A stretch of DNA of 64,000 bases from Candidatus Moraniibacteriota bacterium (GCA_049297495.1 JBAQUL010000035.1:21203-85202), one strand, 5' to 3'; counted from the stretch's first letter, positions 6,148-21,809 are shown. Numbers and translations are program-made. Notes: generated by a model from the letters alone, not told the origin.

Positions 6148-6206
6148 ATGCGAAATTCCCCCTTTTGTAAATTTAACTGTTCGCTCTTAAGGGGATTACC
6201 CAACAT

Positions 6207-6647
6207 CTAAAGCCCCATTACTTGAATGATTATTTCCCTTGTCCTTGCACCATCCATTTCTGCCATAAAGATATTTTGCTTTGCAGTAATCATCATATGC
6301 CCTTTCTCAATTGGCAGTGTTTCACTAATTCCAAGAAGCATCACCTTGCAATGCGAATGTCCGTTGCTCCGACCATCGGATTTATTTTTCTTCGCTAGCT
6401 CGAAAAGATCATGGGAATAGCGATCCTCAACTGGTGCTATGCGGCATAGAACGCGCATGAAATCCTGAATCAACATAGATTCATTATGGTTCACAAAGAT
6501 TCCTGTCGAAGTATGTGGAGAATAGATAAGCACTGTTCCTTCCCTCACGCCGGACGAACTAATAATCTCTTCTACCTTGCTTGTAATATCTATTATTTCT
6601 ATGCTACTTGTGCTTTTTATTTCGATTTTTTTGCGATAAATTTTCAT
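6207..6647 (-). CDS. YjbQ/UPF0047 family protein (secondary thiamine-phosphate synthase-like)
   Basis: TSSIEIIDIT...GTVLIYSPHTSTGI...NGHSH pattern of the YjbQ family. Confidence 0.7.
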   Translation of the reverse strand: MKIYRKKIEIKSTSSIEIIDITSKVEEIISSSGVREGTVLIYSPHTSTGIFVNHNESMLIQDFMRVLCRIAPVEDRYSHDLFELAKKNKSDGRSNGHSHCKVMLLGISETLPIEKGHMMITAKQNIFMAEMDGARTREIIIQVMGL

Positions 6648-6654
6648 ATTATTT

Positions 6655-6797
6655 TCTCTATGAACTACGAATTAAGTTTTTCTCTACGAACTACGAATTT
6701 TTACGAATATACGAATGATTTTAGGAAAACTTTCTTAAACTCATTCCGACTTGCTATTATCGATTAGTATATTCGTACTGATTCGTAATTCGTAGAG
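6655..6797. repeat. Palindromic 'tacgaat' element: direct copies tctcta(c/t)gaactacgaatt plus inverted arms ctctacgaactacgaatttttacgaatatacgaat (6682-6716) and attcgtactgattcgtaattcgtagag (6771-6797); a second copy lies at 46929-46965
   Basis: Read directly. The right arm abuts the malic-enzyme stop codon and the left side lies in the yjbQ 5' region. Confidence 0.7.
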
Positions 6798-6798
6798 A

Positions 6799-7935
6799 TT
6801 ACCGAAAGACTGCCGCTACTTTCCTCGCTACATTCTTATCCAACGCTTTTGGTATTATTTTATCACTAGTTGGCTTTTTTATCAAACCGGCAATCGCATA
6901 TGCCACCTTAATTTTATGTTCTTCGGTAATTTTTTTGACATGATTGTCCAGCACTCCGCGAAAAATTCCCGGAAAAGCCAAGACGTTATTGATCTGATTA
7001 GCAAAATCTGAGCGACCAGTCGCCACAATCCGCGCCCCGCCTGCTTTGGCGCGATCCGGCATAATTTCCGGCACAGGGTTCGCCATAGCAAACACGATTG
7101 AATTCTTATTCATTTGAGCGATATCTTCTTCAGTAAGAATGTTCGGCGCCGAAACGCCAATAAACACATCCGCGCCAGTCAGCGCATCACGCACATTCCC
7201 TTTGACATTTTCCGGGTTAGTAATTTTGGCAATTTCCATTTTTGAGCCATTTAGTCCGCCAACTCTTTCTTTATAGATAATTCCCATCCGATCAAGCATA
7301 ATAATATTTTTTGCCCCGGCTTTAATGAGCAGCTTGGCAATCGCCACCCCCGCCGCTCCGGTGCCGGAAATGACAATCTTTATTTTCGCCAAATCTTTTT
7401 TGACGACTTTCAGCGCGTTAATGAGACCGGCCAAAACCACAATCGCTGTGCCGTGCTGGTCGTCATGAAAAACCGGGATGTCCAATTCTTTTTTCAGCGC
7501 TTCCTCCACGTCAAAACAACGCGGAGCACAAATGTCTTCTAGGTTTATTCCACCAAACGTCGGTGCCAACGCTTTCACTATTTTAATTATCTCCTGGGTA
7601 TCTTGCGTATCAAGCACAATCGGAATCGCATCCACGCCAGCAAGCTCTTTAAATAGCAGGGCCTTGCCTTCCATCACAGGCAGCGCCGCTTCCGGACCGA
7701 TATTGCCCAATCCCAAAACCGCCGAACCATCAGAAATAACCGCCACTGTATTTTTGCGCATCGTATAGCTAAAAGATAATTTTTTATCTTTAGCAATCGC
7801 TTTCGAAACTTCCGCCACCCCCGGAGTATACAAAACCGCCAGATTCTTCTCTGTCAATTTTTCTTTACTCCTGATTTCGATCTTTCCACCGATTTTCTTG
7901 GAAAGCTTAATTGAAGGATATTCTTGGTTTTTCAT
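6799..7935 (-). CDS. NAD(P)-dependent malic enzyme (short MaeB-type)
   Basis: YTPGVAEVS, DGSAVLGLGNIG, GINLEDI, FHDDQHGTAIV and GTGAAG Rossmann motifs. Confidence 0.85.
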   Translation of the reverse strand: MKNQEYPSIKLSKKIGGKIEIRSKEKLTEKNLAVLYTPGVAEVSKAIAKDKKLSFSYTMRKNTVAVISDGSAVLGLGNIGPEAALPVMEGKALLFKELAGVDAIPIVLDTQDTQEIIKIVKALAPTFGGINLEDICAPRCFDVEEALKKELDIPVFHDDQHGTAIVVLAGLINALKVVKKDLAKIKIVISGTGAAGVAIAKLLIKAGAKNIIMLDRMGIIYKERVGGLNGSKMEIAKITNPENVKGNVRDALTGADVFIGVSAPNILTEEDIAQMNKNSIVFAMANPVPEIMPDRAKAGGARIVATGRSDFANQINNVLAFPGIFRGVLDNHVKKITEEHKIKVAYAIAGLIKKPTSDKIIPKALDKNVARKVAAVFR

Positions 7936-8037
7936 ATATTTAGATATGCAATTAGAAATCGTAGAATTGTTTGCTATTTTAAAACAGAAGGTTGATAGGT
8001 ATTACACATCAAAAGTAAAGTGTGACCAATATCTTTT

Positions 8038-8301
8038 TTACTGACCCATCATATACCTCCAGCTACCAGGCGAATACAAACCAAAGAAAACAACGATCAA
8101 AAACACAAAAAGAACGACAGTAAATACTAGTATACTGGCAATTTTAACCCCAGATACAATTTGGTTGCCCGCGCTAGGTTTCACGACGTTGATAATCCTA
8201 TTCTCGCCAGTATTTTTAAAATTTTTCCAAAACCAAAATAGCATTGAAAAAAGTATCCCAAGAAAAAAAATCAAAAGCAATGCAAAGAAAGTTATTACCA
8301 T
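8038..8301 (-). CDS. Small hydrophobic membrane protein (2 TM), hypothetical
   Basis: ORF directly downstream of trxB on the same strand with two hydrophobic segments. No family recognised. Confidence 0.35.
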   Translation of the reverse strand: MVITFFALLLIFFLGILFSMLFWFWKNFKNTGENRIINVVKPSAGNQIVSGVKIASILVFTVVLFVFLIVVFFGLYSPGSWRYMMGQ

Positions 8302-8316
8302 TTTTTATTTTAACTA

Positions 8317-9240
8317 TTATTTCAACTTGAGCAATTTATACGCCCCATTCGCCGCCACTGCGCCTTCAGCTGAAGCAGTGATGATTTGGCGGAATTTGTT
8401 TGATCCGGTCGTAATATCCCCGGCTGCAAAAATGCCAGAAACATTAGTACTCATATCGGCATTGACTTTAATATAACCCTGCTCATCAATTTCCACGCCC
8501 AATGTCCTTGCCAACTCCACACCCGGATCTGATCCAATCTCCACAAACACGCCGTCAGTTTCCAAATAGGTCTTGTCATTGTGGGCTTTGTCCAGAATCA
8601 CCTTTTCTACTTTTTGCTCGCCTTTAATTTCAATAATATTAGTATTTTTAATCGCTTCAATTTTGGGATTATTCGCCAGTTTTTCCAGCCAGATCGGTTC
8701 GGCCGGAAAACGGTCTCCGCGATAAATCAGATAGACCTTGGAAGCAAAATCAGTTAGCCCGAGTGCTGCCGTCACCGCTGAATTTCCTCCGCCAATTACC
8801 GAAACGACTTTATCGCGAAAAAACATCGCGTCGCAAGTGGCGCAATAGGAAACACCTTTGCCGGTCAATTCTTTTTCGCCGGGGATGTTCATCTTGCGAT
8901 ATTCAGTCCCCATCGCCATAATCACCGCGCGCGTCTTGTGCGTATCTTTTCCTGTCACCACCTCAAAAAAACCGTCGTCGTTTTTCTTCACAGAAACCAC
9001 CGATTCATTTTGAGGAGCCACGCCTAAGACTTTACAATGCTCCACAAAACGCGAAAGTAGGTCAAAACCAGTAACAGAAATATCACCCGGCCAATTTTCG
9101 AGATTACGTATTTCACTCACCTGTCCGCCAATTGTCGCACCAAGTAGCAAATGATTTAGCTTATACCGCGAAGCATAAATCGAAGCCGCAAGACCAGCTG
9201 GTCCCGCGCCAATAATAATTAAGTCGTATGTTTCTTGCAT
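8317..9240 (-). CDS. trxB: Thioredoxin-disulfide reductase
   Basis: DLIIIGAGPAG FAD motif, CATCDA redox-active disulfide and GGGNSA NADPH motif. Start moved to the internal Met (MQETYDL) at 9240; the 35-aa extension in the track ORF runs through GC-rich hairpins. Confidence 0.85.
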   Translation of the reverse strand: MQETYDLIIIGAGPAGLAASIYASRYKLNHLLLGATIGGQVSEIRNLENWPGDISVTGFDLLSRFVEHCKVLGVAPQNESVVSVKKNDDGFFEVVTGKDTHKTRAVIMAMGTEYRKMNIPGEKELTGKGVSYCATCDAMFFRDKVVSVIGGGNSAVTAALGLTDFASKVYLIYRGDRFPAEPIWLEKLANNPKIEAIKNTNIIEIKGEQKVEKVILDKAHNDKTYLETDGVFVEIGSDPGVELARTLGVEIDEQGYIKVNADMSTNVSGIFAAGDITTGSNKFRQIITASAEGAVAANGAYKLLKLK

Positions 9241-9272
9241 AATAATATTTTGAGAAATTCTATTTATATCCC

Positions 9273-9434
9273 CTTCTCCATTAGGGAGAAGCCTGCCTGC
9301 CGGTAGGCAGGGTGGCTGAAAGCCGGATGAGGGATTAATATTCACATAGAGAGTGTTAAAATTTAATCAAAACTATTATTGACCAATAACACTCCCTCAC
9401 CTGTCCTCCGGACATCCTCTCCCGGAGGGAGAGG
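9273..9434. repeat. Cluster of GC-rich hairpins in the trxA-trxB spacer: cttctccattagggagaag (9273-9291), cctgcc-ggta-ggcagg (9296-9311), cctctcccggagggagagg (9416-9434); a related hairpin cctctccttgataaggagagg lies at 32558-32578
   Basis: Perfect short palindromes read from the sequence, standing out in AT-rich surroundings. Confidence 0.6.
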
Positions 9435-9490
9435 AGGAATTTAACTGAACTTATAAATTATTAAAGCCCATAGCTACTTAAATAGGATTG

Positions 9491-9528
9491 TTTCATGTTT
9501 CATGTTTCATGTTTCATGTTTCATGTTT
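9491..9528. repeat. Tandem heptamer (tttcatg)x5 immediately 3' of the trxA stop codon
   Basis: tttcatgtttcatgtttcatgtttcatgtttcatg read directly. Degenerate copies of the same motif form the 5' leader of smc (about 21593-21640). Confidence 0.8.
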
Positions 9529-9842
9529 TACGCCTTCTCCAGCGCCTCCTTCAAAACTTCCTTCGCCTGCATTCCCACAAATTCTTGCACTACTTTTCCG
9601 CCTTTGAAAATCTTAAGCGCGGGAATGGACATGATGGCGAAATCCTGGGCAGTCTTGGAATTTTCATCTACATTAATTTTCCCCACTTTAGCTTTTCCAT
9701 CAAATTCCTTGGCCAATTCTTCGATAATTGGACCCATGGCTAGGCATGGTCCACACCAAGGCGCCCAGAAATCCACCAAAACCGGCTTATCACTTTTTAA
9801 AACTTCCGCCTCAAAATTTTGATCCGTAAATACTTGTTCCAT
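9528..9842 (-). CDS. trxA: Thioredoxin
   Basis: WAPWCGPC active site, 104 aa. Confidence 0.9.
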   Translation of the reverse strand: MEQVFTDQNFEAEVLKSDKPVLVDFWAPWCGPCLAMGPIIEELAKEFDGKAKVGKINVDENSKTAQDFAIMSIPALKIFKGGKVVQEFVGMQAKEVLKEALEKA

Positions 9843-9912
9843 ATGATATTTAATCTGTTAATCATAAATTTAGCTATAATTAACAAATTGTAAGTTAAAA
9901 AATTATCCTCAC

Positions 9913-10028
9913 GAATTTCAAAATCCTAATATCAAATTTCCAATCAAATCCAAAGCTCAAAGCTCAAGATATTTTTGACATTTGAATTTTTAATTTGGTT
10001 TGACATTGGAAATTTGAGTTTTGAAATT
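9913..10028. repeat. Palindromic intergenic element of the 'aatttccaat / caaatccaaagctcaaa / tttgacattggaaattt' family (solo copy)
   Basis: Left half gaatttcaaaatcctaatatcaaatttccaatcaaatccaaagctcaaagctcaag, right half tttgacattggaaatttgagttttgaaatt. Same family at 53586-53662, 54938-54987/55357-55380 and 57812-57941. Confidence 0.65.
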
Positions 10029-10072
10029 ATCTTAATTTGATTTTAATATCAACATATACGAAGATGGATTTT

Positions 10073-10786
10073 TTATCCCCCAAACCGTCTTTGTCTTCTC
10101 GTATATTCCGCCAACGCTTCCTCAAACTTTTCCTCATTAAAATCAGGAAACTTTTCAGGTGAAAAAAATAGTTGCGCGTCAGCCACGTCCCACATCATAA
10201 ACCCGGCGCTATTGTGAGGCTCGCCCCCGGTCCTGATCATATAATCCACTGGTGGAATTTTGGCAGTCATCAAATTTTCCTTAACTATCTCTGCGGTAAT
10301 CTTCATGCCTTTTTCATATTTAGCGCCAATTTTCTCAATCGCATAAAGCATCTCGTCCGTTCCTCCGTAGGCTAGCATAAAATTCAACATTCGTTTTTGA
10401 TAATTTTTTGTTTTTTCCAATACCGCATAAATTATCTGCTTTAGAGAATCTGGAAATTGTTCTTCCCAGCGACCAATAAAATTCACCTGAACCTCATTCT
10501 CATAGATCTCTTTTCCTTCAAGCATTTTTGTGAAATAGCGTTTATAGATATCCAATAGCGCTTTTTTCTCTTCCAGCGGCCGCTTGGTCAGATTATCAAT
10601 AGACGATCCCCAAATAGAAAGACACTCAATTCCTCTTTTCAAAGAATAGCTAATTATTTTTTCAAAATTTTCCGCCCCAGCCTCATGCCCCTTCCAGGAT
10701 GGAAGACCTTTTTCCCGTGCCCAACGCCGATTAGCATCAGGAATAATCGCAACATGTTTTGGCAAATTGTCCGACTTATTTTCCAT
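10073..10786 (-). CDS. uppS: Undecaprenyl-diphosphate synthase (cis-prenyltransferase)
   Basis: HVAIIPDANRRWA motif and cis-IPPS fold signatures. Confidence 0.88.
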   Translation of the reverse strand: MENKSDNLPKHVAIIPDANRRWAREKGLPSWKGHEAGAENFEKIISYSLKRGIECLSIWGSSIDNLTKRPLEEKKALLDIYKRYFTKMLEGKEIYENEVQVNFIGRWEEQFPDSLKQIIYAVLEKTKNYQKRMLNFMLAYGGTDEMLYAIEKIGAKYEKGMKITAEIVKENLMTAKIPPVDYMIRTGGEPHNSAGFMMWDVADAQLFFSPEKFPDFNEEKFEEALAEYTRRQRRFGG

Positions 10787-10803
10787 AATCTAATAACACT
10801 TAA

Positions 10804-11895
10804 TTAAACCTCTCTTTTTATAATATACTCTGCGATACCCTCTAGAAATTCTTTCGCTTCATTATTCTTAAACTCAATGCCCTTTAAGGCCCTGAGCGAT
10901 ATCGCAACCAGCTTCTCGGCCAATTCACGAGAATAGTCCAGAGATCCGGTTTCTCGAATAATCTTTCGAAACTCCCCTATCTCACCTTTCGTCAAATCTT
11001 TTTTTCCAAGCAACCGCCTTATCCTGTCAACTTGGCGCGCATCTCCAGTTTGAAGAGCCTTAAAAACCAATAGCGTTTGCTTTCCTTCTATTATATCAGC
11101 TCCAACAGATTTGCCTAGTTTTTTCTCATCACCAAAAACTCCCAAAATATCATCACGAATCTGAAAGGCTTTTCCAACCGGCAAAGAATAAGCGGAAAAG
11201 GCCTCTAGCAGCTTGGAATTATTTTCTTGCCCCGCAAGAACTGCGCCAAGGTGCAGGGGTCCTTCAAATGTATAGCAAGCGGTTTTTCCTTCATGCATAC
11301 GCGCTATTTCCCCCTCTGTCGCCGCTCCCTTTGCGCCCATCAAAACATCCACCATCTCACCAGGGATAGTCCGCGCCACGATTATCTGAATCCTCCTAAG
11401 AGCACTCAGGATTATTTTCGGTTCAAAATCAATGTCATAAAGAATCTGACTCGCCATCGCATGAGCATAGTCACCAGTTACAATCGCCATCGAATTGCCA
11501 AAATGCATCGCCTCACTATCTGAAAGTCTCAATCTTTTGCCCCATTTGTAATAGGTCTTATGTACTGTTTCAATGCCATGTCGCGTATCATCTCGATCAA
11601 TAATATCGTCATGAATCAAGAGAAAAGCGTGCACCAATTCAATCGCCATAGAAGCCTTGACTATCTTTTTATCATCCTTGCCCCCCGCTGCTAGATAACC
11701 ATAGTAAGTCAACGCTGGACGCACTCTTTTTCCACCGGAAAGCACAAATTTTTCAATTATCTTAATGGTTTTAACGGCTAATGGATCGACTTTCTTGGCC
11801 TGAATAATCTTGGTCAAAAAGTATTCTTTCAGATGAGGGTCTAGGCGCTTTTTGTAGGCTTTCAACATTTCGATAGCTTGCAGATTGTTTTTCAT
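10804..11895 (-). CDS. trans-Polyprenyl diphosphate synthase (IspA/IspB family)
   Basis: Aspartate-rich motifs LLIHDDIIDRDDTRHG and FQIRDDILG. Confidence 0.8.
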   Translation of the reverse strand: MKNNLQAIEMLKAYKKRLDPHLKEYFLTKIIQAKKVDPLAVKTIKIIEKFVLSGGKRVRPALTYYGYLAAGGKDDKKIVKASMAIELVHAFLLIHDDIIDRDDTRHGIETVHKTYYKWGKRLRLSDSEAMHFGNSMAIVTGDYAHAMASQILYDIDFEPKIILSALRRIQIIVARTIPGEMVDVLMGAKGAATEGEIARMHEGKTACYTFEGPLHLGAVLAGQENNSKLLEAFSAYSLPVGKAFQIRDDILGVFGDEKKLGKSVGADIIEGKQTLLVFKALQTGDARQVDRIRRLLGKKDLTKGEIGEFRKIIRETGSLDYSRELAEKLVAISLRALKGIEFKNNEAKEFLEGIAEYIIKREV

Positions 11896-12304
11896 TAGTT
11901 TAACCCTTAAATTTATTTTAAACTTTCATCTCTATAATATACTAGAAAACCAGACACTTGTCGAGAAATCAACCACTCAATAAAAAAACACCTCACTGAG
12001 GCATTTTTTCATGTTTTTGAAGATATTTATATAATTAAAAAAAACTTATTTTTAGGCGGACCAAATAATTGCCTTGAGTCCAATTTTTTCGACGATTGGC
12101 GTGGGTAATTCAATTGCCCGCGCAAACAATCTGCCGTCATCTGGTCCTGGAAAAAATATGCTCAAATTATCTCACCCCCAACCGTCAAAGCACATTTCTC
12201 AAGGTTCTTTTTTATTATATCAAAGGCAAGGTTAAATTTTTGTTAAAAAAATAGGACCCATCGCTTATTAGGCAATGAGTCCCGGGAAGGGTATTTTTTC
12301 ATAG

Positions 12305-13561
12305 CTACCTCCGTCCTCCAATCCTGGCATCCATTTGGCCGCAAGCGGATCCAATTTCGTCACCAAGAAGAATAAGAACTCGGCAGGGCACTTTAGCGGA
12401 ATCGAAAATTCCTTTCATCTGCATAATCCGTTCTTCAGTTGCAGGATTAAAACTTCCAACTCGCATAGCCTTTGTTAATTTAGCCTCAATTCTCTTCCGG
12501 CCTAGTAGCAATTCCACCATAGCGGCAGTAACTCTTTGAGAAGAATTCACTCCTTGAAAAATGGAGAAATTTGCGCATCCAGGATTTAGGCTATAGCAAG
12601 AAAACTCCTCGACTAAATCGAGTACTGGCTCCAACAAAGATCCTTTGGTTGCTGGCATTATCTCAAGCCTTTTTTTATCTTCCGGAATATGCACCGAGAT
12701 TTGAATCTCAACAATTCTCGGATCACCACGAAATCTTCTCACAAATTCCGCTAATTTTGAGAGTATGCCAACCGTAGAAACAGCAACGGAATATCGATCA
12801 CTATCCAAACCGTCAACAAACCGAGCGATATTATCAATGTTCGATGTTGGTTCGCCCATTCCCATGATAGAGATTAGGATTTTTTGCCTGCGGTCGTTGG
12901 GATATTCTTGCTCGCTTACCTGCTTCCACAGTTCTGCTTCAGTTAAGTTTCTGGCAGGATATCCCCGTGTTCTTGTGGATATGCCTGTTTCACAAAACTT
13001 GCAACCCATATTACACCCATTCTGCGAAGAAATGCAAATCACATCAGAAGCACCTCGTCGTCGATTCGGTAGATATAGTCTGGCGGATTCCATTGGCCCA
13101 TCAACAAATAACTCACGAATGGTTTTGTCCGCTGATTGCTCAACATACATTTTTTCATGGAAGCCACGTTCTCTGATTTTAGATGCCTTATTGAGGAACT
13201 CCAGGATGAGATCGAGAGAAACGGGCTTGCTTATGAAAAAGGTCACGCCCAGCTCTTGTGTGCAAATCTTAACCTTATTTTCATCCGCATAACCAGTGAG
13301 AATGATTACCTGGTTATAAATCCCGTTTTCCCTCAACCATCTCACAAAATCGATTCCGTTCAAATCACCACCAAAACCAATATCCGTTAGAAAGACCCCG
13401 TCATACCTATCCATCTTTTGAAGAATTTTTATGGCTTTTTCCGGGGACGACGCGAAAATTATTTCGTGTCCAAGTCGCGAAAGAAATACAGACAACATTC
13501 CTACAATCATATTATCATCTTCCACAATGAAAACTTGCATATCTTTTCCTCCTTCTTTCAA
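12305..13561 (-). CDS. Response-regulator receiver domain fused to an RlmN/Cfr-type radical-SAM methyltransferase domain
   Basis: N-terminal REC with all conserved residues (VEDD, VFLTD, ILTGY, ISKP). C-terminal part has ICISSQNGCNMGCKFCETG (CX3CX2C), SIMGMGEP, VSTVG and SACGQ, matching RlmN motifs (CVSSQVGC..C..C, FMGMGEP, VSTSG, AACGQ). Confidence 0.8.
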   Translation of the reverse strand: MKEGGKDMQVFIVEDDNMIVGMLSVFLSRLGHEIIFASSPEKAIKILQKMDRYDGVFLTDIGFGGDLNGIDFVRWLRENGIYNQVIILTGYADENKVKICTQELGVTFFISKPVSLDLILEFLNKASKIRERGFHEKMYVEQSADKTIRELFVDGPMESARLYLPNRRRGASDVICISSQNGCNMGCKFCETGISTRTRGYPARNLTEAELWKQVSEQEYPNDRRQKILISIMGMGEPTSNIDNIARFVDGLDSDRYSVAVSTVGILSKLAEFVRRFRGDPRIVEIQISVHIPEDKKRLEIMPATKGSLLEPVLDLVEEFSCYSLNPGCANFSIFQGVNSSQRVTAAMVELLLGRKRIEAKLTKAMRVGSFNPATEERIMQMKGIFDSAKVPCRVLILLGDEIGSACGQMDARIGGRR

Positions 13562-13569
13562 AGTTATTT

Positions 13570-14766
13570 TTATTTTAAATTACTATTTCTCGGAAAAGTA
13601 ACAACGAATGTCGCACCCTTCCCGAGTCCCTCACTTCCTGCCTTCAGCACACCTCCATGCGCTGAAACTATTTTTTGACAGATTGCCAGACCCAGTCCAA
13701 ACCCCCGTTTTTCAATATTCCCTCCTGTGGTTTTTTCAACTTGAAAAAACGGTTCGGTAACGTACTCTAGCATATGCTTCTCAATCCCACAACCGTCATC
13801 TTTGAAAAATATCCTTGTATCATTTTTGTCTTGCTTGATAAGAATTTCCAGTTTTCCTTTTTCTCTCCCAAACTTAAGGGAATTCTCAATTAGATTGCTC
13901 ACTAAAGTGATTATCTTAGCCTTGTCAGCGCGCAACGTGATCTGCCCAATAGCTGTTTTTTTCAACTGGATGGTAATCTTTTTATTTTTAGCAATGATAC
14001 GATAACTTCCCACTAGCTCATTAATCAAACTTACTAGATTAAACGTTTCCAACTGCAACGAATTGGCATAAACTTCTGATCGACTCACCGAAACCAGCTC
14101 AGAAACAATTTTACTCATTCTTTCAATTTCTCGCTTAACTTCCTCATTGCATTCAATCTTTAGCGGACTCGCACCCTGATCCTCCAGGGCTAGCAGGTCC
14201 AAATTGCCGCGAATAATCGTCAGGATGGTTTTTATCTCATGCGCGATATTAGAAATTAAAACACCTTTCTCATTGGAAAGCTTTTTTAGTTTTGCGTTAG
14301 CCAGTGTTAATTCATCCGTCCTTTCTTTGACTCGCTTTTCTAGTGTTGCGTTTAATTTTAATAATTTTTGCTTCGCCAAATGCCGCGCAGTCCCATCTTT
14401 AGCAATAGAATAGGCTCCGATTATTTCTCCATCCAAATCACGCAACGGTCCAACTATAAAATCCAAAAAACGCCGCGTTGTTGTTGATCGCGACTTATAG
14501 GAATAATTAAACACCTCCGATATCTTTCCTTCTTTCAAAGCAAGATTGATTTTTTCATACAAATACTCATTCTTCCGCGTGCCATCAGTTGTTAATTCAG
14601 AAGTGAATCCCCGCGAACTATCTTTTCCTGCAAGATGATAGAAGAAAGAATTAACAAAAATTCTTTTGCCATTTTTGTCAAAAATATTAACACTAACTGG
14701 AATATTATCCATAATACTCCTCCGAAGCCCTGGGCTTATCTCAGATTCTTTTTTTGACTTATTCAT
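13570..14766 (-). CDS. Cytoplasmic sensor histidine kinase (PAS-HisKA-HATPase_c)
   Basis: PAS-like N-terminus, H-box ISNIAHEIKT, and N/G1/G2 boxes (LIENSLKF, DDGCGIE, GFGLGLAI). No TM segment. Confidence 0.85.
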   Translation of the reverse strand: MNKSKKESEISPGLRRSIMDNIPVSVNIFDKNGKRIFVNSFFYHLAGKDSSRGFTSELTTDGTRKNEYLYEKINLALKEGKISEVFNYSYKSRSTTTRRFLDFIVGPLRDLDGEIIGAYSIAKDGTARHLAKQKLLKLNATLEKRVKERTDELTLANAKLKKLSNEKGVLISNIAHEIKTILTIIRGNLDLLALEDQGASPLKIECNEEVKREIERMSKIVSELVSVSRSEVYANSLQLETFNLVSLINELVGSYRIIAKNKKITIQLKKTAIGQITLRADKAKIITLVSNLIENSLKFGREKGKLEILIKQDKNDTRIFFKDDGCGIEKHMLEYVTEPFFQVEKTTGGNIEKRGFGLGLAICQKIVSAHGGVLKAGSEGLGKGATFVVTFPRNSNLK

Positions 14767-14772
14767 AGGACA

Positions 14773-15447
14773 TTAATAGATGCGATAACCTGATTTAGGG
14801 ACAGTATGAATGAGATCAGAGTTATTGTTGAGTTTTTTCATCTTTGCTTTTAGACGACTAATGGTTGCTGTGACCGTATTGGATATGTTTTCTTTTTCGC
14901 CCCAAACATTTTCACTCAGCATCGTTCTGGTGCAAAAGCGATTTTGATTTCTGATGAGATATTCTAAGAGTTTAAATTCAGTTAATGTAATCTTTAAAGG
15001 TTTGTTATTTATGGTCGCGGTTCGCGTAGCCAAATCAAGCACCAAGGAATCAACCTTGAGTTTTACTTCCGATGATAATTTTTCCCGCCTCCCCAGTGCT
15101 CGCACCCGAGCATTCAATTCTTCCAGCGAAAAAGGCTTGGTCATATAATCATCCGCGCCAATATTCAAACTCAAAACTTTGCTGTCCAAATCACTTTTGG
15201 CGGTGAGCATCAAAATTTTCAAATCCAAGCCAATTTTACGGATATGTCGACAAACTTCAAAGCCATCCGCTCCAGGCAAAAACACATCCAAAATAGCCAA
15301 ATCGTAATCATAAATTTCCATCCGTTCCATCGCTTCTGCTCCATCATCAATATGATCAACAAGATGACCACTACGCTCCAATCCATTTTTGATGATTCTG
15401 GCAATCGCAGGCTCATCCTCAACTACAAGTATTTTCATATTTTTCAA
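14773..15447 (-). CDS. OmpR-family response regulator (REC plus winged-helix)
   Basis: MKILVVEDE, LDVFLPGADG and LMLTAK motifs. C-terminal LTLTEFKLLEYL...GYRIY trans_reg_C domain. Confidence 0.85.
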   Translation of the reverse strand: MKNMKILVVEDEPAIARIIKNGLERSGHLVDHIDDGAEAMERMEIYDYDLAILDVFLPGADGFEVCRHIRKIGLDLKILMLTAKSDLDSKVLSLNIGADDYMTKPFSLEELNARVRALGRREKLSSEVKLKVDSLVLDLATRTATINNKPLKITLTEFKLLEYLIRNQNRFCTRTMLSENVWGEKENISNTVTATISRLKAKMKKLNNNSDLIHTVPKSGYRIY

Positions 15448-15527
15448 AAAAATTATGACTACTTGTATTATAGTCTAACTATAGGTTAAAAAAAGGTTAA
15501 AAAAGCACCTCAACCCAATCGTGACTT

Positions 15528-16256
15528 TTAGTATAAATAATGTTCCAAAGTATAGATCCAGTTTTCATCATTTCCCTCGCCCTGATCTCTTGCCCTAATT
15601 TTTTCATTCAAGAGCCATTGCAAATAGCCCCGATCGCGTCTGGCAACATCTGCCACGCTCACGCCGATATACTTCCCAAAATTAAACTTCTTAACTAAAA
15701 TTGGGCGAGAAGAAATAGCTAGCATTTCCCCAATCGAAGTCACTTCATCCTTTCCCTCAATTAACATTTTCTGGAGATAGTAATCAAACAATTTTTCTAA
15801 AACGCGAATATCTCCCAAGGCATCATGCGCCGGAGCATCTAGCACTTCTAGGTCATGATAATAGCGCAAATATTGCAGAGCATATTTGGGAATCTCGCCA
15901 CTAGCATCAAAATATTGCGCTAGCTTGAAAGTATCAATCATTGATTTCGGTTCCAAATTTTCCCGCCTGAGCATTTCTGCATCAAACCCAACATTGTGCG
16001 CCACTAAAATATGTTCTCCGGAAAAAATTTCCGCTAAATGCTTTTGCATCTCAGAGTCAATAAAAGGCTCCTTGTCAGCCACCATTCGATTGGTAATATG
16101 CGCCACGGCCATGGCATCGATACCAATTGGAACAGGCGGTTTAAAAAGAGCTTCTTTTTCCAGTCCTTGAAATTTATACGCTACCTGACATAAACGATCG
16201 TCCGGTCCAATACCAGTCGTTTCTGTATCTAAGAAAATTAGATGTGATTTATCCAT
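15528..16256 (-). CDS. DnaQ-like DEDDh 3'-5' exonuclease with a C-terminal accessory domain
   Basis: Exo motifs IFLDTETTG, VAHNVGFD and HDALGD. Confidence 0.7.
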   Translation of the reverse strand: MDKSHLIFLDTETTGIGPDDRLCQVAYKFQGLEKEALFKPPVPIGIDAMAVAHITNRMVADKEPFIDSEMQKHLAEIFSGEHILVAHNVGFDAEMLRRENLEPKSMIDTFKLAQYFDASGEIPKYALQYLRYYHDLEVLDAPAHDALGDIRVLEKLFDYYLQKMLIEGKDEVTSIGEMLAISSRPILVKKFNFGKYIGVSVADVARRDRGYLQWLLNEKIRARDQGEGNDENWIYTLEHYLY

Positions 16257-16344
16257 TATTTTTGAAAGTTATTATTTACCAGTAACCTCATCCATTATGA
16301 CACATTATTTATCAGTAGCAAATAAACAATCCACGAACTCACCA

Positions 16345-16983
16345 CTATTCCCTATCCGTAAACACCACTAATCGCTGAGAATAACTCTTGGCGTCTTTAT
16401 CCCAAACTCCTTCACAAGTAATGAGATTGAGATGCGCATGCCCATCACTTGAACTAAATATTTCTGAAGCGTCTACATCTGGGTCATAACTTCGGCTTTC
16501 ACGCACCACAAAAGGAATACTCACACCTTCAGCATCTTCAATGTATAATTTATCGCCTTTGCTCAATTTGTGCAGATTATCAAACACAGATTTCTTTCCA
16601 CCCTTCCATAAACCATAATGACCAGCAATAACCGCGCTGCCACTTTCTCCGGGACGAGTTCCCAATTTGAACCACCCCACCTCATCAGGACCTTTTGGTG
16701 TATCCATTGCTCCAGTAGAAGTAAGCCCTAGAGAATCAACAGCAGAATCGACATCAATCCCGGGAATCTTGAGCCGCACCGGCACACCAAAATTTATCTG
16801 CTCTTGTTTTGGAAAAAAATCAACCTCTTTGGTAGACGACGTCACATCATCAAAAGCCTGCCTCGCTATGGATAACCGGATAAAATAAAAAAGGAGCGCT
16901 GCAAAAAACACAACTCCCGCTAGATTGACTACTAATAATATTCGTCCGGCTGAACTTTTTGATGAATACATAAATAATCTCAA
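16345..16983 (-). CDS. Sortase (class E-like)
   Basis: N-terminal TM anchor, VIAGH catalytic His, LITC catalytic Cys motif, conserved C-terminal Arg. Confidence 0.75.
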   Translation of the reverse strand: MRLFMYSSKSSAGRILLVVNLAGVVFFAALLFYFIRLSIARQAFDDVTSSTKEVDFFPKQEQINFGVPVRLKIPGIDVDSAVDSLGLTSTGAMDTPKGPDEVGWFKLGTRPGESGSAVIAGHYGLWKGGKKSVFDNLHKLSKGDKLYIEDAEGVSIPFVVRESRSYDPDVDASEIFSSSDGHAHLNLITCEGVWDKDAKSYSQRLVVFTDRE

Positions 16984-17099
16984 AAAAAGTCAAACCAGCT
17001 TCGGTCCGACTTTTTATCTATCAGAAAACCAGGAAAGTAAAAATTTTTAATTTCTTCAACACCCAAAACTAAAATAAAAACTGCTTTTAAGTTAGTTAG

Positions 17100-18275
17100 C
17101 TAGAGGAGATTAAGAATCGATGACACTTTTTGGATGACAGCCTCCCATAGGCTGCTATTTTCTTCATCCGGACCAATTCCCGCATTTGGAAGACCTGGGA
17201 CAGAAACGGTGACAGTCACCTTGTCCGTATCTTTTACTTCCTCACCGTTGGTTCCGCGAGCAGTAGCTGTGTTCGTTTCAGTTTCCGAAACTAGCTTAGT
17301 ACACGTATATCTCCACCTCTCATTAGTATCTAGTTTTGAATCATGATCTCCATCGCCAGAAACAAATTTCACAGGGCTACATTTGTCATCCTTAACTGAT
17401 ACAAACTTCAATGCACCATCGCCTTCATTCCTCACATCATAGGTATAAGTGACAAACCCGGGACCGGAATATAGGGCTGAGGGAGTGGCTCTTTTTTTAA
17501 CACTAATGTCGACATCGCCGCTGTCATCATCCTCATCATCATCGTCGCTATCATCCCCTGATGAAGAATCGCATATTGCCCGAGTAATCGTATTTGTATC
17601 AAGAGTGACAGCGCCATTTCTCGCCAATACTCGACCCTCTATAGTGGCACTGTTGTTTAGTGTAATAGATGTTAAGGCTAAGATGTTTCCACTAAAATCT
17701 GTTGTTGTTCCGAGCGTTGCTGAACTAGTGATTTGCCAAAAAACATGGCATGCTTGTCCGCTATTAGTCATTACAACATTACTATTTGATGCCGTAGTAA
17801 GCGCAGAGCCAATCTGAAAGATAAAAACTGCATCCGCGTTACCTTGAGCATCAAGCGTTAATGTTCCCGTTAACTGAGCTGAACTACTAAAGCAATAAGT
17901 GCCCGGCGTGAGCGTAAGCCCACCCAAATCTTGACCCGTCAAATCCACATCACATGACTGACCAGCAGCGGAATTATAGGCCGTAACCAAATCGTCCTTG
18001 GCTCCTTGTGTAACTGCATCGCCAGCGTGATTTGTTCCATTCAAGACAACATTTCCGATCCCTGTGATAGACGTCGTTGGAAATGTTCCAATATCGCCCG
18101 TTATTGTAGTTGAGTTAACCGCACCTGCGATTGTAATCCCCGAACCACCCAAAACCGCAAAATTTCCAGCCGTGCCAAGATTCACATTGGTCGCAGCCTC
18201 AACTTTTCCGAAGAAACCGAACACGGTCGCAAAAACCAAAATAACAACCATGGCAACCCAACTAAATTTTTTCAT
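17100..18275 (-). CDS. Secreted protein: DUF3494 (ice-binding-like) N-domain plus DUF11 repeat, acidic linker, C-terminal LPNAG motif
   Basis: Signal peptide. LGTAGNFAVLGGSGITIAGAVNSTTITGDIG is the hallmark DUF3494 start. DUF11-like segment GPGFVTYTYDVRNEGDGAL...VSGDGDHD..L...ERWRYTC. Poly-Asp/Glu stretch. C-terminal PGLPNAGIG. Confidence 0.6.
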   Translation of the reverse strand: MKKFSWVAMVVILVFATVFGFFGKVEAATNVNLGTAGNFAVLGGSGITIAGAVNSTTITGDIGTFPTTSITGIGNVVLNGTNHAGDAVTQGAKDDLVTAYNSAAGQSCDVDLTGQDLGGLTLTPGTYCFSSSAQLTGTLTLDAQGNADAVFIFQIGSALTTASNSNVVMTNSGQACHVFWQITSSATLGTTTDFSGNILALTSITLNNSATIEGRVLARNGAVTLDTNTITRAICDSSSGDDSDDDDEDDDSGDVDISVKKRATPSALYSGPGFVTYTYDVRNEGDGALKFVSVKDDKCSPVKFVSGDGDHDSKLDTNERWRYTCTKLVSETETNTATARGTNGEEVKDTDKVTVTVSVPGLPNAGIGPDEENSSLWEAVIQKVSSILNLL

Positions 18276-18398
18276 CTTTTTATTTTATTAATTATTCATT
18301 TTTAGGTAAAATTTCACTAGGTAAACTATACCACAAGAGCAAAAAGTTGACAACACACTTGTACTAAACTTGTCAAGCCCGAAGCAATTTAAAATAAA

Positions 18399-18428
18399 AC
18401 GCCCGCTATGTTCACACATAGGGGGCGT
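18399..18428 (-). terminator. Rho-independent terminator (minus strand) after the small ORF 18454..18738
   Basis: aacgcccgctatg-ttcaca-catagggggcgtt hairpin, followed on the minus strand by tttattttaaatt. Confidence 0.6.
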
Positions 18429-18453
18429 TGCCAAGCATTTCCGCTTCTTGTTG

Positions 18454-18738
18454 TCAAATTATTGACCAGTCGACGTTAGCCACAGTTCTTCCTTTCTCAC
18501 GATCTCCGCAAACGATGGCGAAAAACGGTAAAAGAGAAGGTAGACTATCGGGACTATTCCTGATCGTATCAATGTAAAGCTGGTTAAGCACCATGCGCAT
18601 TCCTGCGCTACGATCATCGATGCCGTTTCCCGCGACCAATGCTTCGCAAAGTAAGAATTGGATTTCCACGCGCCGCTTCCCAGTACAATCAGATTTAGCG
18701 GCTTCTTCAAGCAATTCTTTTAATTGCCTTTGTTTCAT
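18454..18738 (-). CDS. Small hypothetical protein (94 aa) in a locally GC-richer segment next to tRNA-Glu
   Basis: ORF with a downstream terminator. GC content is visibly higher than the flanks. No family recognised. An alternative overlapping frame (18459..18710) exists. Confidence 0.3.
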   Translation of the reverse strand: MKQRQLKELLEEAAKSDCTGKRRVEIQFLLCEALVAGNGIDDRSAGMRMVLNQLYIDTIRNSPDSLPSLLPFFAIVCGDREKGRTVANVDWSII

Positions 18739-18938
18739 AACTCGTCTCCTTTTGTTTTATTTATACCCATGATGAGATTAATCTTAATAACACATCATTC
18801 AACGAAGAACGACATGTCATATTAGCACATTTATGCCAATTAGTCAATAGACCGCTTCCTTACCCAAATTATTAGGCTCTATAAAGCCCAGATCCAAAAT
18901 CAGGCAGAATTACTTATTTTACGCCCACATCAAACAGA

Positions 18939-18978
18939 CAAACAAAAACCACCAACAGATGCTGGTGGTTTTTGTTTG
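18939..18978. terminator. Bidirectional rho-independent terminator downstream of tRNA-Glu
   Basis: Perfect 16-bp stem caaacaaaaaccacca / tggtggtttttgtttg with loop acagatgc, and A/T runs on both sides. Confidence 0.7.
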
Positions 18979-19014
18979 ACATATGATGTCTGTCCATCTT
19001 TAAGTTACTGATAG

Positions 19015-19086
19015 TAGCCTCAAGGGGAATCGGACCCCTGTTTCCAGGATGAGAACCTGATGTCCTAGCCGCTAGACGATGAGGCC
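19015..19086 (-). tRNA. tRNA-Glu (anticodon CTC)
   Basis: Reverse complement GGCCTCATCGTCTAGCGGCTAGGACATCAGGTTCTCATCCTGGAAACAGGGGTCCGATTCCCCTTGAGGCT folds into a cloverleaf (7-bp acceptor, D-arm with GG, anticodon loop TTCTCAT). T-loop TCCGATT has a C at position 55, which is unusual. Confidence 0.6.
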
Positions 19087-19119
19087 ATTTTCTACATACT
19101 CTATTATTATTTTTAATTT

Positions 19120-19181
19120 CCAGGATGCTTGTCCGCCTCGGGCGGAAGAACCTGACGTCCTAACCGATAGACGATGGGGCC
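19120..19181 (-). other. Partial duplicate of the tRNA-Glu 5' half (acceptor 5' strand, D-arm, anticodon arm) with a 19-nt hairpin-forming insertion in the anticodon loop; no T-arm or 3' acceptor
   Basis: GGCCCCATCGTCTATCGGTTAGGACGTCAGGTTCT[TCCGCCCGAGGCGGACAAG]CATCCTGG aligns with the intact tRNA except for the bracketed insert (plus strand 19128-19146), then degenerates into AT-rich spacer. Confidence 0.5.
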
Positions 19182-19240
19182 AAAATATCCAAAACTTAGC
19201 TTATCAGTAACTGGAAAAATTATCAAGTGAACGGCGCAAA

Positions 19241-21589
19241 TTACTGAATTATCTTTCCGCCCTTTCCTACCTGATCAATTTTCACAGAAAGCATCTTGGA
19301 CATTCCGTCCTCTCCCATTGTAACGCCATAGAGCAAGGATGCTTGACGCATTGTTTCGCGATTATGAGTGATAATCACAAATTGAGTGGAGTCGGAAAGC
19401 TCCTGGATAATCCGACCAAAACGCTTTGAGTTTGCCTCATCAAGCGCCGCCTCCACTTCGTCTAAAATCGAAAAGGGAGGTGGATTATGAGCAATTATGG
19501 CAAAAAGTAGAGCTAGTGAAGTGAGTGAACGCTCTCCACCAGAAAGCATTGCAAGGCTCGCGATTTTTTTGCCTGCCGGACAGGCTGAGATATCGATACC
19601 AATTTCGTCCTTATCATCCTCATCCTCCACAACAGCTTCTTTTTCGGCTTCGCCGTCTTGCTCATTGACCTCAACATTCTCAGCTAAATCATCCTTCGTT
19701 CTGCGCGTTTTTATCTTCACCTTAGTCAGATGAGCGTCTCCACCGCCAAAAATAATGCGAAAATATTTAGAAAACTCTCTATTAATTTCATCGAAAGTCT
19801 CATGAAACTTCTCGTTCACTTTTTTCTCCATCTCTTTGATCACTTCCCGAAGTGACACCAAGGCATTTTCCAGGTCCGCAGATTCAGTCGTCAAGAATTG
19901 AAAGCGCTTTTCAGTTTCATCATATTCAGTCACAACCAAGGGATCAATCCCCCCGATTTGCTCCATTTGAAATTTCAACTTAGCAATATCTCTTTCCAGA
20001 GAAAACTGATCAACTACTTCCAGCGTTTTTGCCAAAAGTTCAGCGTCCAATTTCAGCTCTTCCAAAATTCTCGCCCGCAAATCCTCTTCCCGCACCTCGA
20101 TCTTTGCCAAGGAAATCTTGAAATCATTATACTTATCCTTAAACGAATTAGTCTCATCCTGTTTTAGGCGCAACTCACGCTCCAACATGAAAAATTGCTG
20201 GCGCTTTTCGCGATCCAGCGCAATTTCCGCTTGAATTTCCCGAGAAATTTTTTGCAAATCTTCTTCAATCGCTTTGATTTCTTCGCGCGCTTTTCGCGAT
20301 TTAGCCCTCAGTTCAATGATTGCCTGAGAATCAACAGACACAACAACTGGAACGGGTTTGATTTCCACCTTTTTTTGCGAAGACGGGGTCTCTTTTTTCC
20401 CCTTTTCAATGTCGCCCCTAAGTTCAGTTAATTTTTGCTGAATTTTTCGTGCCAATTCGCGAACAACCTCGATATCCTTCAAATCCTTCGCGTCATTCAG
20501 CTTTTGCACCAACACCTCCTGATCACGTCTGATTTCTTCCAAATTACCTTTGACATAACTCAAGTCCACTGGCTGACTTTGAATCTTGATTTCTTCGATG
20601 ATTTGAATGCTTTTTTGCTTTTCTTTTTCCAATTCAATCCGTCCTTCAGAAACAATCAATTCGCGCTCTAAATCGTTCAAGCGACTGCGCTTTTCCCTTT
20701 GAATTTTTTCCAATTCTTGCAAGGTTTCATTGGTTTTTTCTTCCTTGGAACGTCGATTGACCTCGTCCAAAAGTTTGTCCGCTTCGCGCTGGATATTATT
20801 CATCTTTGCACCCAGCGTATCTTTTTCTTCGTTCAGTTTTATCTTATCCTCATTAAATTTATTCCAAAGGTAGGTATAGAGCTTCGTTTGTTTTTCTTTT
20901 AGCTCCTTAGCGACAATCTCTCCTTGTGCCGCTTTTTCTGCTTGACGCTTAAGCACTTTCAGATGTGGCCGTATCTCTTCGATAAGTTCACCCACTCGCA
21001 CTAAATTTATCTTCGTTGTTTCCAACTTTCGGAGTGCTCGTTCTTTTTTGATTTGATATTGCTTCACCCCCGCCGCTTCCTCAATCACAAATCGACGTTC
21101 AAGTGGCGTCGCATTGAGCACGGAATCGGCCATGCCTTGATTGATGATGGCGTGACTTTCTTTGCCCACACCGGCCTTAGCTAGAATATCCACAATGTCT
21201 TGCAATCTTACCCTCGAACCATTGACCAGATATTCACTTTCACCACTGCGAAAAATTTTTCGAGAAATTGCCACTTCATCAAATTCCAAAGGCAATCTTT
21301 TTTCACTATTATCGAAATAGAGTGTCACCGTAGCACTGCCCAATTTGGCCTTTTTTCCTGAACCGGCGAAAATAATGTCCTCTGATTTTTTGCTCCGCAA
21401 GTTTTTCATCGACTGCTCCCCAATCACCCAACGCATGGCGTCAGCAATATTCGATTTTCCTGAACCATTCGGCCCGACGATAGCGGTTATCCCGCGAACA
21501 GCACCCTCCACAGAAGACGACGAAAAATCCAACACTGTTTTTGTTGCGAATGACTTAAATCCATTAATTTCCAATTTTTTCAAAAACAT
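19241..21589 (-). CDS. smc: SMC-family chromosome-segregation ATPase, short form (~783 aa) without a recognisable hinge
   Basis: N-terminal MFLKKLEINGFKSF and GPNGSGKSNIADAMRWV Walker A. C-terminal LSGGERSLTSLALLFAI signature and ILDEVEAALD Walker B. Long coiled-coil middle. Start moved to ATG at 21589; the track's extension runs through the catgttt repeats. Confidence 0.75.
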   Translation of the reverse strand: MFLKKLEINGFKSFATKTVLDFSSSSVEGAVRGITAIVGPNGSGKSNIADAMRWVIGEQSMKNLRSKKSEDIIFAGSGKKAKLGSATVTLYFDNSEKRLPLEFDEVAISRKIFRSGESEYLVNGSRVRLQDIVDILAKAGVGKESHAIINQGMADSVLNATPLERRFVIEEAAGVKQYQIKKERALRKLETTKINLVRVGELIEEIRPHLKVLKRQAEKAAQGEIVAKELKEKQTKLYTYLWNKFNEDKIKLNEEKDTLGAKMNNIQREADKLLDEVNRRSKEEKTNETLQELEKIQREKRSRLNDLERELIVSEGRIELEKEKQKSIQIIEEIKIQSQPVDLSYVKGNLEEIRRDQEVLVQKLNDAKDLKDIEVVRELARKIQQKLTELRGDIEKGKKETPSSQKKVEIKPVPVVVSVDSQAIIELRAKSRKAREEIKAIEEDLQKISREIQAEIALDREKRQQFFMLERELRLKQDETNSFKDKYNDFKISLAKIEVREEDLRARILEELKLDAELLAKTLEVVDQFSLERDIAKLKFQMEQIGGIDPLVVTEYDETEKRFQFLTTESADLENALVSLREVIKEMEKKVNEKFHETFDEINREFSKYFRIIFGGGDAHLTKVKIKTRRTKDDLAENVEVNEQDGEAEKEAVVEDEDDKDEIGIDISACPAGKKIASLAMLSGGERSLTSLALLFAIIAHNPPPFSILDEVEAALDEANSKRFGRIIQELSDSTQFVIITHNRETMRQASLLYGVTMGEDGMSKMLSVKIDQVGKGGKIIQ

Positions 21590-21752
21590 CCTATCATGAA
21601 GCATGAAACATAAAACACGAAACAAAAAAGCTTGAGCCTAATTCGTCCTATGTTATATGCTTCATATTATATGTTACATGTTATGCTACATGTATTTTTA
21701 TTCTACAACACTTTTTAAAATAAATAAACCCAGAGTCACAAGTTAACAAAAA

Positions 21753-21773: not shown

Positions 21774-21809
21774 TTTGCTCTATCTTTTCTCCAAATGTCA
21801 AGGTCTTAT

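Follow-up and report, generated by a model that had tools for sequence, protein, structure and literature searches.

A receiver domain fused to a class A radical-SAM methylase in a two-component operon of Candidatus Moraniibacteriota, followed by a structured RNA with a shared promoter box

Can a histidine kinase act on RNA methylation through a receiver domain built into the methylase itself? The question is raised by a locus in a 64,000-nucleotide stretch of Candidatus Moraniibacteriota bacterium (GCA_049297495.1 JBAQUL010000035.1:21203-85202), called here the window, in which positions are counted from the first letter. The region 12305..15447 shows three co-oriented open reading frames (ORFs) on the minus strand: 14773..15447, encoding a response regulator (RR), 13570..14766, encoding a histidine kinase (HK), and 12305..13561, encoding a protein in which an N-terminal receiver (REC) domain is joined to a radical S-adenosylmethionine (radical-SAM) methylase core, called here the fusion. 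An original prediction, made from the sequence, had described these genes as a two-component operon ending in a phosphorylation-gated methyltransferase. The reading preferred here, to which slightly better than even weight is given, is a branched two-component system with two outputs, in which the fusion would be a phospho-gated RNA adenine C-methylase.

The N-terminus of the fusion contains a complete REC domain, as had been proposed. Residues are numbered from ATG 13540, which is probably the true start, since GGAGG stands eight bases ahead of it and the NCBI model of the identical protein has 411 aa. Response_reg (PF00072) matches aa 10-122 of the 418-aa ORF (3e-14, 53.5 bits against a cut-off of 30.2), and distant members of the family score 33-77 bits with the same model. 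The acid pocket lies in the motif VEDD, and the codon of the phospho-acceptor D53 is 13382..13384. An alignment of 17 family members shows no variation at D8, D53 and K105 and only T or S at position 82. The AlphaFold2 (AF2) model shows the (beta-alpha)5 receiver fold, with five strand-helix units in aa 2-125. Foldseek matches the model of the fusion to solved receivers with template-modelling (TM) scores of 0.77-0.87, dozens of them at 0.8-0.87, and a sequence search of the PDB matches residues 1-130 to NtrC1-type and other receivers. A recent duplication of the REC domain of the neighbouring RR is unsupported, the two domains sharing only 26% identity.

The rest of the fusion is a class A radical-SAM methylase in the broad sense. 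Enzymes of this class consist of a single radical-SAM domain and two conserved cysteines (PMC9692996), and the assignment is made because the defining features were each tested and found. Radical_SAM (PF04055) matches with 5.6e-11 and 43.3 bits, above the cut-off of 29.5, so that the Response_reg and Radical_SAM searches suggested for the ORF both pass the Pfam cut-offs. The motifs CX3CX2C (C176/C180/C183), MGMGEP, VSTVG and ACGQ are present, together with an additional cysteine, C169, upstream of the cluster motif. In the alignment to E. coli RlmN (3rf9), E151 corresponds to E105, C169 to C118, C176/C180/C183 to C125/C129/C132, and C400 to C355. In RlmN, the methyl group sits on C355, and C118 serves to resolve the adduct (PMC9692996). 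The N-proximal cysteine of the original prediction is therefore present, as C169, but the methyl-transfer role given to it is not upheld, since C400 would carry the methyl group and C169 would resolve the adduct.

The best PDB sequence matches of the fusion are, in order, the RlmN of Sphaerobacter (6fz6, 1.4e-18), Cfr (9p0p) and E. coli RlmN (3rf9). Foldseek, with probability 1.0, likewise places RlmN first (6fz6, 3e-18; 5hr6, 2e-16) and Cfr 9p0p next (7e-11), followed by REC domains; with the equivalents of E105, C118, CX3CX2C and C355 invariant, the C-terminus belongs to the RlmN/Cfr family, as predicted. The AF2 model, built from a 70-sequence alignment, shows a predicted local distance difference test (pLDDT) score of 92.8 and a predicted TM score (pTM) of 0.91, and is confident across the domain junction. 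The modelled secondary structure contains a helix at 109-125 and then strands at 131-135, 141-145, 150-156 and 166-170, so that alpha5 of the REC domain (109-125) leads, after about 5 residues, to the strands bearing E151 and C169. The residues D8, D53, K105, E151, C169, C176, C180, C183, G227, G229, N234, S282, R291, N332, C400 and G401 are invariant in 17-18 members, and the key residues of the core are also kept in nearly all of the 52 RlmN relatives aligned. The core is basic, with a pI of 8.5 against 8.8 for RlmN cores. A class B (cobalamin-dependent) N-terminal domain is ruled out, as the N-terminus is a REC domain with a full phospho-acceptor site; Pfam shows no B12-binding domain in the fusion, and the structural match to TsrM is weak and partial (Foldseek rank 46).

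Within this class, the fusion is an ortholog neither of RlmN nor of Cfr, as its scores, its N-terminal domain and its clade all show. TIGR00048 gives it 112.7 bits against an equivalog cut-off of 290, and the Cfr models TIGR04432, NF000424 and NF011024 give 82.8, 90.9 and 85.1 bits against cut-offs of 550, 530 and 468. The separate canonical rlmN noticed earlier at 43839..44876 is confirmed, with 317.2 bits for TIGR00048 against the same cut-off of 290 and the RlmN_N domain (PF21016, 4.7e-12). PF21016 shows no match to the fusion even at E<=0.1, and none to the distant members. The TIGR00048 match of the fusion covers model positions 70-344, and this start at position 70, together with the presence of PF21016 in the canonical rlmN only, agrees with the claim that the REC domain stands in place of the N-terminal domain of RlmN.

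The survey of this domain architecture proposed with the original prediction returns a small family. An exhaustive hidden Markov model (HMM) search of 1.84 billion cluster representatives finds about 16 end-to-end matches of 405-436 aa, with ordinary RlmN cores below them. A word-indexed search of 5.8 billion proteins finds only two relatives with the fused architecture (75% and 48% identity). The family size is taken from the exhaustive search, as the word-indexed profile search recovered only 4 members, and a scan of genome contigs with generic patterns (GCxMGCKFC, MGMGEP) was swamped by ordinary rlmN genes. The 17 aligned members share 24-49% identity with the fusion of the window. The clusters of the family are all singletons from metagenomes, labelled RlmN by JGI, and the organism labels in the family are only Candidatus Moraniibacteriota/Moranbacteria. 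In a neighbour-joining (NJ) tree of 251 core columns, with 18 fusion proteins and 52 RlmN-/Cfr-like sequences, the fusion proteins form one clade in 98/100 bootstraps, apart from the RlmN-/Cfr-like sequences and from those labelled as C8-methylases by JGI, and the canonical rlmN of the window groups with RlmN of the Candidate Phyla Radiation (CPR) type. The monophyly suggests that the fusion arose once, long ago, and diverged rapidly thereafter.

The fusion gene is tightly packed with the two signalling genes, as had been described: the gap is 6 nt between RR and HK and 8-29 nt between HK and fusion. The earlier gene bounds hold as ORFs, with the starts corrected to ATG 13540 for the fusion and to ATG 15438 for RR, the latter being the probable start because homologs of RR have 221 aa. 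RR matches Response_reg (2e-28) and Trans_reg_C (8e-20) and shares 95% identity with its ortholog at locus L001. HK matches HisKA (8e-11), HATPase_c (6e-22) and, weakly, PAS_4 (0.0096), and its N-terminus shows no hydrophobic stretch. These Pfam matches support the OmpR type of the regulator and, with a weak PAS_4, the PAS histidine kinase; a REC plus winged-helix Trans_reg_C regulator and a HisKA/HATPase_c kinase are encoded in one operon. The terminator-like hairpin that follows the fusion gene is kept in L001, L002 and L092.

The association with a sensor extends through the family. A sensor gene adjoins the fusion gene in 11/11 contexts, and in 7/11 it encodes a histidine kinase. The order RR-HK-fusion is found in the window and L089, in L001, in the P0123 and P0130 contigs and in L090, and HK-fusion, with the contig cut upstream, in L083/L084 and L094. 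L085/L086, L093, L087 and L088 show a gene after the fusion which encodes a PAS/GAF protein of 440-632 aa without a kinase domain, and 2/4 of these PAS/GAF-type cassettes have an HD-domain protein before the fusion. HK has about 24 orthologs of 42-100% identity, several of them on contigs of P0121, P0122, P0123, P0124, P0127 and P0130. The same three-gene cassette is usual even where the fusion proteins share about 30% identity. Further downstream the contexts vary. In L001, unlike the window, a distance of 1.4 kb separates the fusion gene from a downstream 16S rRNA gene (Rfam, 1305 bits), behind which lies an ORF for a LAGLIDADG homing endonuclease (4915..7069), and the P0123 and P0130 contigs (JGI 3300075153) contain an Rrf2 - cysteine desulfurase - NifU Fe-S assembly cluster 4-5 kb downstream.

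OmpR/PhoB-type regulators usually recognise direct repeats of 11-bp periodicity which replace the -35 element. The exact sequence TTTAAC-N5-TTTAAC has only 2 occurrences in the 64-kb window, one at the promoter of the operon and one at that of a small RNA (sRNA) downstream of the fusion gene, and the composite of this box and TATAAT has 2 matches there against 0.00 expected. A set of 94 loci, about 0.95 Mb in total and for the most part unrelated rlmN loci, shows the composite at kinase-type fusion loci only. Upstream of the RR gene, L001 shows TGTAAC-N5-TTTAAC and L090 shows ATTAAC-N5-ATTAAC. Downstream of the fusion gene, the exact box is found in L001, L002, L089, L092 and L094, with the variants TTTAAT-N5-TTTAAT in L090 and L091 and ATTAAC-N5-TTTAAC in L083 and L084. 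No TTTAAC box was detected at the PAS/GAF-type cassettes (L085, L093, L087, L088). The box is probably the operator of the OmpR-type regulator and, from its layout at both promoters, we infer that RR autoregulates the operon and drives the sRNA. In L083 (2604..3250), ATTAAC-N5-TTTAAC and TGTAATAT precede another response-regulator gene (MDKKGLLIIEDDE...), in place of the sRNA.

After the fusion gene, the order is terminator, an invariant TTTAAC-AAAAA-TTTAAC, an 11-nt spacer, an extended -10 and the sRNA. The ~300 nt past the fusion stop show 82% identity between the window and L001, though the four-fold sites of the flanking genes are near saturation. RNAalifold folds the sRNA with 46 pairs. 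In an alignment of 5 copies, which was itself fitted to the structure model, 96% of cells are paired and 21/46 pairs show double compensatory changes, a count reached by 0/500 shuffles, with 0-5 in slid controls. A covariance model locates the sRNA downstream of the fusion in L001, L002, L089 and L092. A homolog is also found in L094 (2405..2554; 50.7 bits, E 9e-12), preceded by the identical box and spacing, where the fusion is 27% identical, and L090 shows the start of a similar RNA behind TTTAAT-N5-TTTAAT, up to the contig end. Rfam has no family for this sRNA, the best match being IS128 with 22 bits against a gathering score of 80. A homolog was not detected near the PAS/GAF-type cassettes or in L083 with speed filters off, and a role of the sRNA as universal companion of the family is not supported. 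The short reading frames within the sRNA region are broken by 1-nt indels and by compensatory changes in the pairs, and thus show no conservation; the likeness of the stretch GAUGACGG to the 23S A2503 context was dropped, as it is not kept in L002. About 600 nt without genes follow the fusion in P0123 and in P0130, a space in which the sRNA could lie. The coordinates of all these features are collected in Table 1.

Table 1. Coordinates of the operon, protein domains, promoter elements, terminator and sRNA in the window, and of the PAS/GAF-type cassettes in other loci.
Feature	Position	Strand	Description
-10 and box of the operon: TTTAAC-N5-TTTAAC box	15485..15501	-	11-bp period; putative OmpR-type regulator site
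-10 and box of the operon: -10 TATAAT	15467..15472	-	12 nt past box; no -35 hexamer
OmpR/PhoB-type RR gene	14773..15438	-	221 aa from ATG 15438; mechanical ORF start TTG 15447
Soluble PAS-HisKA-HATPase_c histidine kinase gene	13570..14766	-	398 aa; Pfam; begins 6 nt past RR stop
REC/class A radical-SAM methylase fusion gene	12305..13540	-	411 aa plus stop; GGAGG 5' of ATG 13540
REC domain of the fusion, aa 1-122	13175..13540	-	E7/D8 acid pocket, D53, T82, K105; PF00072
Linker and beta-strand extension with E151 and C169	13031..13174	-	directly after REC alpha5; C169 codon 13034..13036
Radical-SAM core with C176, C180, C183, MGMGEP and C400	12308..13030	-	PF04055; C400 codon 12341..12343
Intrinsic-terminator-like hairpin and T-run	12253..12283	-	22 nt past fusion stop; operon end
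TTTAAC-N5-TTTAAC box of the sRNA	12231..12247	-	second copy; spacer AAAAA
Extended -10 TGATATAAT of the sRNA	12214..12222	-	11 nt past box; invariant in four loci
Unclassified structured sRNA, ~155 nt	12043..12200	-	5' hairpin and long branched helix, then T-run; RNAalifold
PAS/GAF-type cassettes	L085 6171..9671; L093 3045..6554; L087 7001..10353; L088 7001..10337		distant family members

The sRNA and the shared promoter box are additions to the original prediction, and so is the allelic hypervariability of the fusion gene. The identities of RR, HK and fusion are 95, 86 and 49% with L001 and 65, 48 and 31% with L090, and those of HK and fusion are 52 and 42% with L083, the fusion being the least conserved each time. 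The nonsynonymous divergence (dN) from L001 is 0.44 for the fusion, 0.04 for RR and 0.07 for HK. Against L002, the ratio of dN to synonymous divergence (dS) of the fusion is 0.17, with 0.04-0.08 in neighbouring genes, and at this value purifying selection still acts. Dating of the alleles by dS failed, as synonymous sites are saturated in all three genes.

L092 and L002 show this variability between near-identical flanks. Their polyprenyl-synthase and UPPS proteins are 99-100% identical and their DNA is 98.7% identical over 2.5 kb, whereas their fusion proteins share 47% identity, with a sharp breakpoint, and identity sets in again precisely where the sRNA ends on its 3' side (region compared: L092 2190..3174 and L002 1..1400, equivalent to about 12040..13380 of the window). 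When the window is set against L001, 5' homology stops near codon 53 of the REC domain. From these breakpoints, most of the fusion gene and the sRNA behave as a cassette exchanged among close relatives, which appear to hold at least 3-4 very divergent fusion-plus-sRNA allele classes. An assembly chimera across the conserved sRNA could explain part of the allele swap; genuine recombination is favoured by the 5' pattern, which is seen in independent assemblies. Allele patterns of this kind are what diversifying or balancing selection typically leaves at a locus.

In the branched system preferred here, the cytoplasmic PAS histidine kinase would phosphorylate two receivers, that of RR and, to judge from gene order, that of the adjacent fusion. 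The OmpR-type regulator would bind the TTTAAC-N5-TTTAAC repeats in place of the -35 element at both promoters and thereby act on the operon and the downstream sRNA. In the fusion, the methyl group would be loaded on C400, in a C-terminal loop, and a 5'-deoxyadenosyl (5'-dA) radical would abstract one of its hydrogens; the resulting radical would add to an sp2 carbon of adenine, and C169 would resolve the adduct. Phosphorylation of D53 would shift alpha4-beta5-alpha5, and the change would reach the extension strands or free the RNA-binding face, so that activity or substrate access might be switched much as the receiver of CheB gates its methylesterase. The candidate substrates are the 23S A2503 region, tRNA A37 and the adjacent sRNA.

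Several observations weigh against this scheme. A PAS/GAF protein without a kinase domain is found instead of HK in 4/11 contexts. The N-terminal helical domain of RlmN and Cfr is predicted to bind RNA, and its mutations partly lower Cfr activity (PMC2836569); the fusion lacks this domain, thought to aid RNA binding in both enzymes. The loop before C169 is longer and variable in the fusions, which carry L, C or other residues at the position of Cfr S151 and the RlmN N, and the residues tied to RNA binding and regiospecificity match neither enzyme. As the fusion misses the equivalog cut-offs of RlmN and Cfr by a wide margin, its target may be a different one. Evolution of the fusion is also 6-12x faster than that of its partner genes, an unusual rate for an enzyme of housekeeping RNA modification.

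The alternatives concern the gating, the target and the integrity of the gene. The REC domain might be a phosphate sink, a kinase docking module or a pseudo-receiver, leaving the enzyme as a constitutive second RlmN-like methylase; receivers of the phosphate-sink and pseudo-receiver types are known (bioRxiv 10.1101/2025.06.23.661182), and the four contexts without an adjacent kinase would suit such a role. Pseudo-receivers, however, usually lose some of the pocket residues, whereas the whole family here keeps the pocket Asp, the phospho-Asp and the Lys without exception and has T or S at the Thr position. The alpha5 helix runs straight into the strands of the catalytic residues in a rigid model (pTM 0.91) and the covalent fusion is kept in one clade over deep divergence, so that an ungated enzyme seems quite unlikely. 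With gating retained, the fusion could be an inducible Cfr-like enzyme protecting ribosome or tRNA at a conflict locus, where an antibiotic, toxin or phage cue would switch on methylation of 23S A2503 or of a base close to it. Diversifying or balancing selection would then explain the swapped, highly divergent alleles, among them those of L092 and L002 with their sharp breakpoint, and the rank of the fusion as fastest-evolving gene of the cassette in every comparison; Cfr is, in addition, the second-closest solved relative. This is unlikely all the same: the Cfr equivalog models give 83-91 bits against cut-offs of 468-550, the fusion clade is apart from the JGI-labelled C8-methylases, no antibiotic or phage genes are found nearby, and part of the allele swap could come from chimeric assembly. 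Membership of a known anti-phage defence system is rejected, as the fusion matches no PADLOC defence family; HK and RR give only weak generic domain matches there.

The target might instead be the downstream sRNA, as dedicated substrate or partner, the REC domain having replaced a generic RNA-binding domain because the target changed. The sRNA directly follows the fusion in the window, L001, L002, L092 and L094, and partially in L090, shares its promoter box with the operon and lies within the exchanged cassette, as judged from the return of L092/L002 identity at its 3' end. Adjacency and co-regulation are, however, equally expected of an ordinary regulatory sRNA under two-component control, no homolog was detected at the PAS/GAF-type cassettes or L083, and no conserved unpaired adenine is singled out as target, which makes this choice of substrate improbable. 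The same low standing is given to the wider proposal of a self-contained signal-to-RNA-modification module, whose dedicated substrate or partner would be the sRNA and whose divergent cassettes would be exchanged between near-identical genomes. An artefact or decaying gene, whether a frameshift or misassembly of a stand-alone receiver and a truncated rlmN or a pseudogene, could account for the fast evolution (dN of 0.44 against L001) and the low Radical_SAM and RlmN scores. A frameshift or misassembly is nevertheless ruled out, since about 17 distinct proteins show the same single ORF on independent contigs, from various samples and assemblers and down to 24-27% identity, and with all catalytic residues invariant, a dN/dS of 0.17 and an AF2 model confident over the domain junction, an artefact or decaying gene of any kind has almost no standing.

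The branched system, with a gated RNA methylase as one output, is best placed against known enzymes and regulators. RlmN, the C2-methylase of 23S A2503 and tRNA A37 (3RFA, 5HR7, 6FZ6), has the same class A fold, and the equivalents of its E105, C118, CX3CX2C, GxGEP and C355 are kept in the fusion. The fusion differs in having REC for the helical RlmN_N domain, in its 22-31% identity, its separate clade and the longer, variable loop before C169, and it is found in a genome that already holds a canonical rlmN. Cfr, the C8-methylase of 23S A2503 that gives PhLOPSA resistance (9P0P), is of the same mechanism class, and its E91, C105, C112, C116, C119 and C338 are matched; the fusion lacks the N-terminal lobe of Cfr and the residues that the Cfr structure paper ties to RNA binding and regiospecificity, and it is not on a mobile resistance element. 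The arrangement of an N-terminal receiver and an enzyme is likewise that of CheB and of other REC-enzyme response regulators, such as PleD/WspR (GGDEF), RpfG (HD-GYP) and PorX (PglZ). As with CheB, the fusion is encoded with a kinase that would also serve a second regulator, whereas its output is a predicted radical-SAM RNA methylase. REC-enzyme fusions of narrow range are a recurrent, recognised class that puts enzymes under environmental control (PMC5847659, Galperin census).

OmrA and OmrB are OmpR-dependent sRNAs and thus under two-component control. In the locus studied here, an OmpR-family regulator with direct-repeat boxes is similarly placed to drive a structured sRNA, the regulation being suggested by the shared box; the sRNA differs in being outside Rfam and in being coupled to, and co-inherited with, an RNA-methylase gene. 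ANTAR regulators (AmiR, EutV) are two-component outputs that act on RNA directly and not on DNA (PMC3369931); these bind RNA hairpins to prevent termination, whereas the fusion would modify RNA covalently. The nearest conceptual precedent is the RlmN of E. faecalis, a sensor of reactive oxygen species (ROS) through which an environmental signal modulates methylation to tune translation (PMC10336011). There, the signal hits the Fe-S cluster of a housekeeping enzyme, and here a dedicated paralog with a phospho-receiver is encoded in a two-component operon. A full-text search of the accessible literature found no paper joining a receiver domain with RlmN or radical SAM, none on Patescibacteria two-component systems with radical SAM, and no response regulator with a radical-SAM RNA methylase as its output, in line with the earlier view that this output is not known to be described for two-component signalling.

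If the preferred reading is true, a two-component system would have carbon methylation of RNA, of m2A/m8A type, as a direct output at the post-transcriptional level, and environmental sensing would be linked to the epitranscriptome of ribosome, tRNA or sRNA. As genomes of the CPR/Patescibacteria are small and have little regulatory capacity, a conserved regulator-kinase-methylase-sRNA module is likely to be important. By analogy with the C118A trap of RlmN, a C169A variant should form a covalent cross-link with its substrate and so identify the target directly. Three further findings, the sRNA, the putative operator and the cassette-like exchange of alleles, can each be tested independently.

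In the window, as in L002 but unlike L001, the sRNA is followed by a second terminator-like hairpin (GCCTCAGTGAGGT and a T-run). A promoter-like TCGACA-17-TATATT comes next, ahead of the polyprenyl synthase gene (10804..11895); the two elements are at 11936..11964 and 11975..12010 on the minus strand. The GC skew of the window (1..64000) is negative, strongly and uniformly so, from about 2 kb on (cumulative -5.4) and all genes examined are on the minus strand, so that the window probably lies inside a single replichore.

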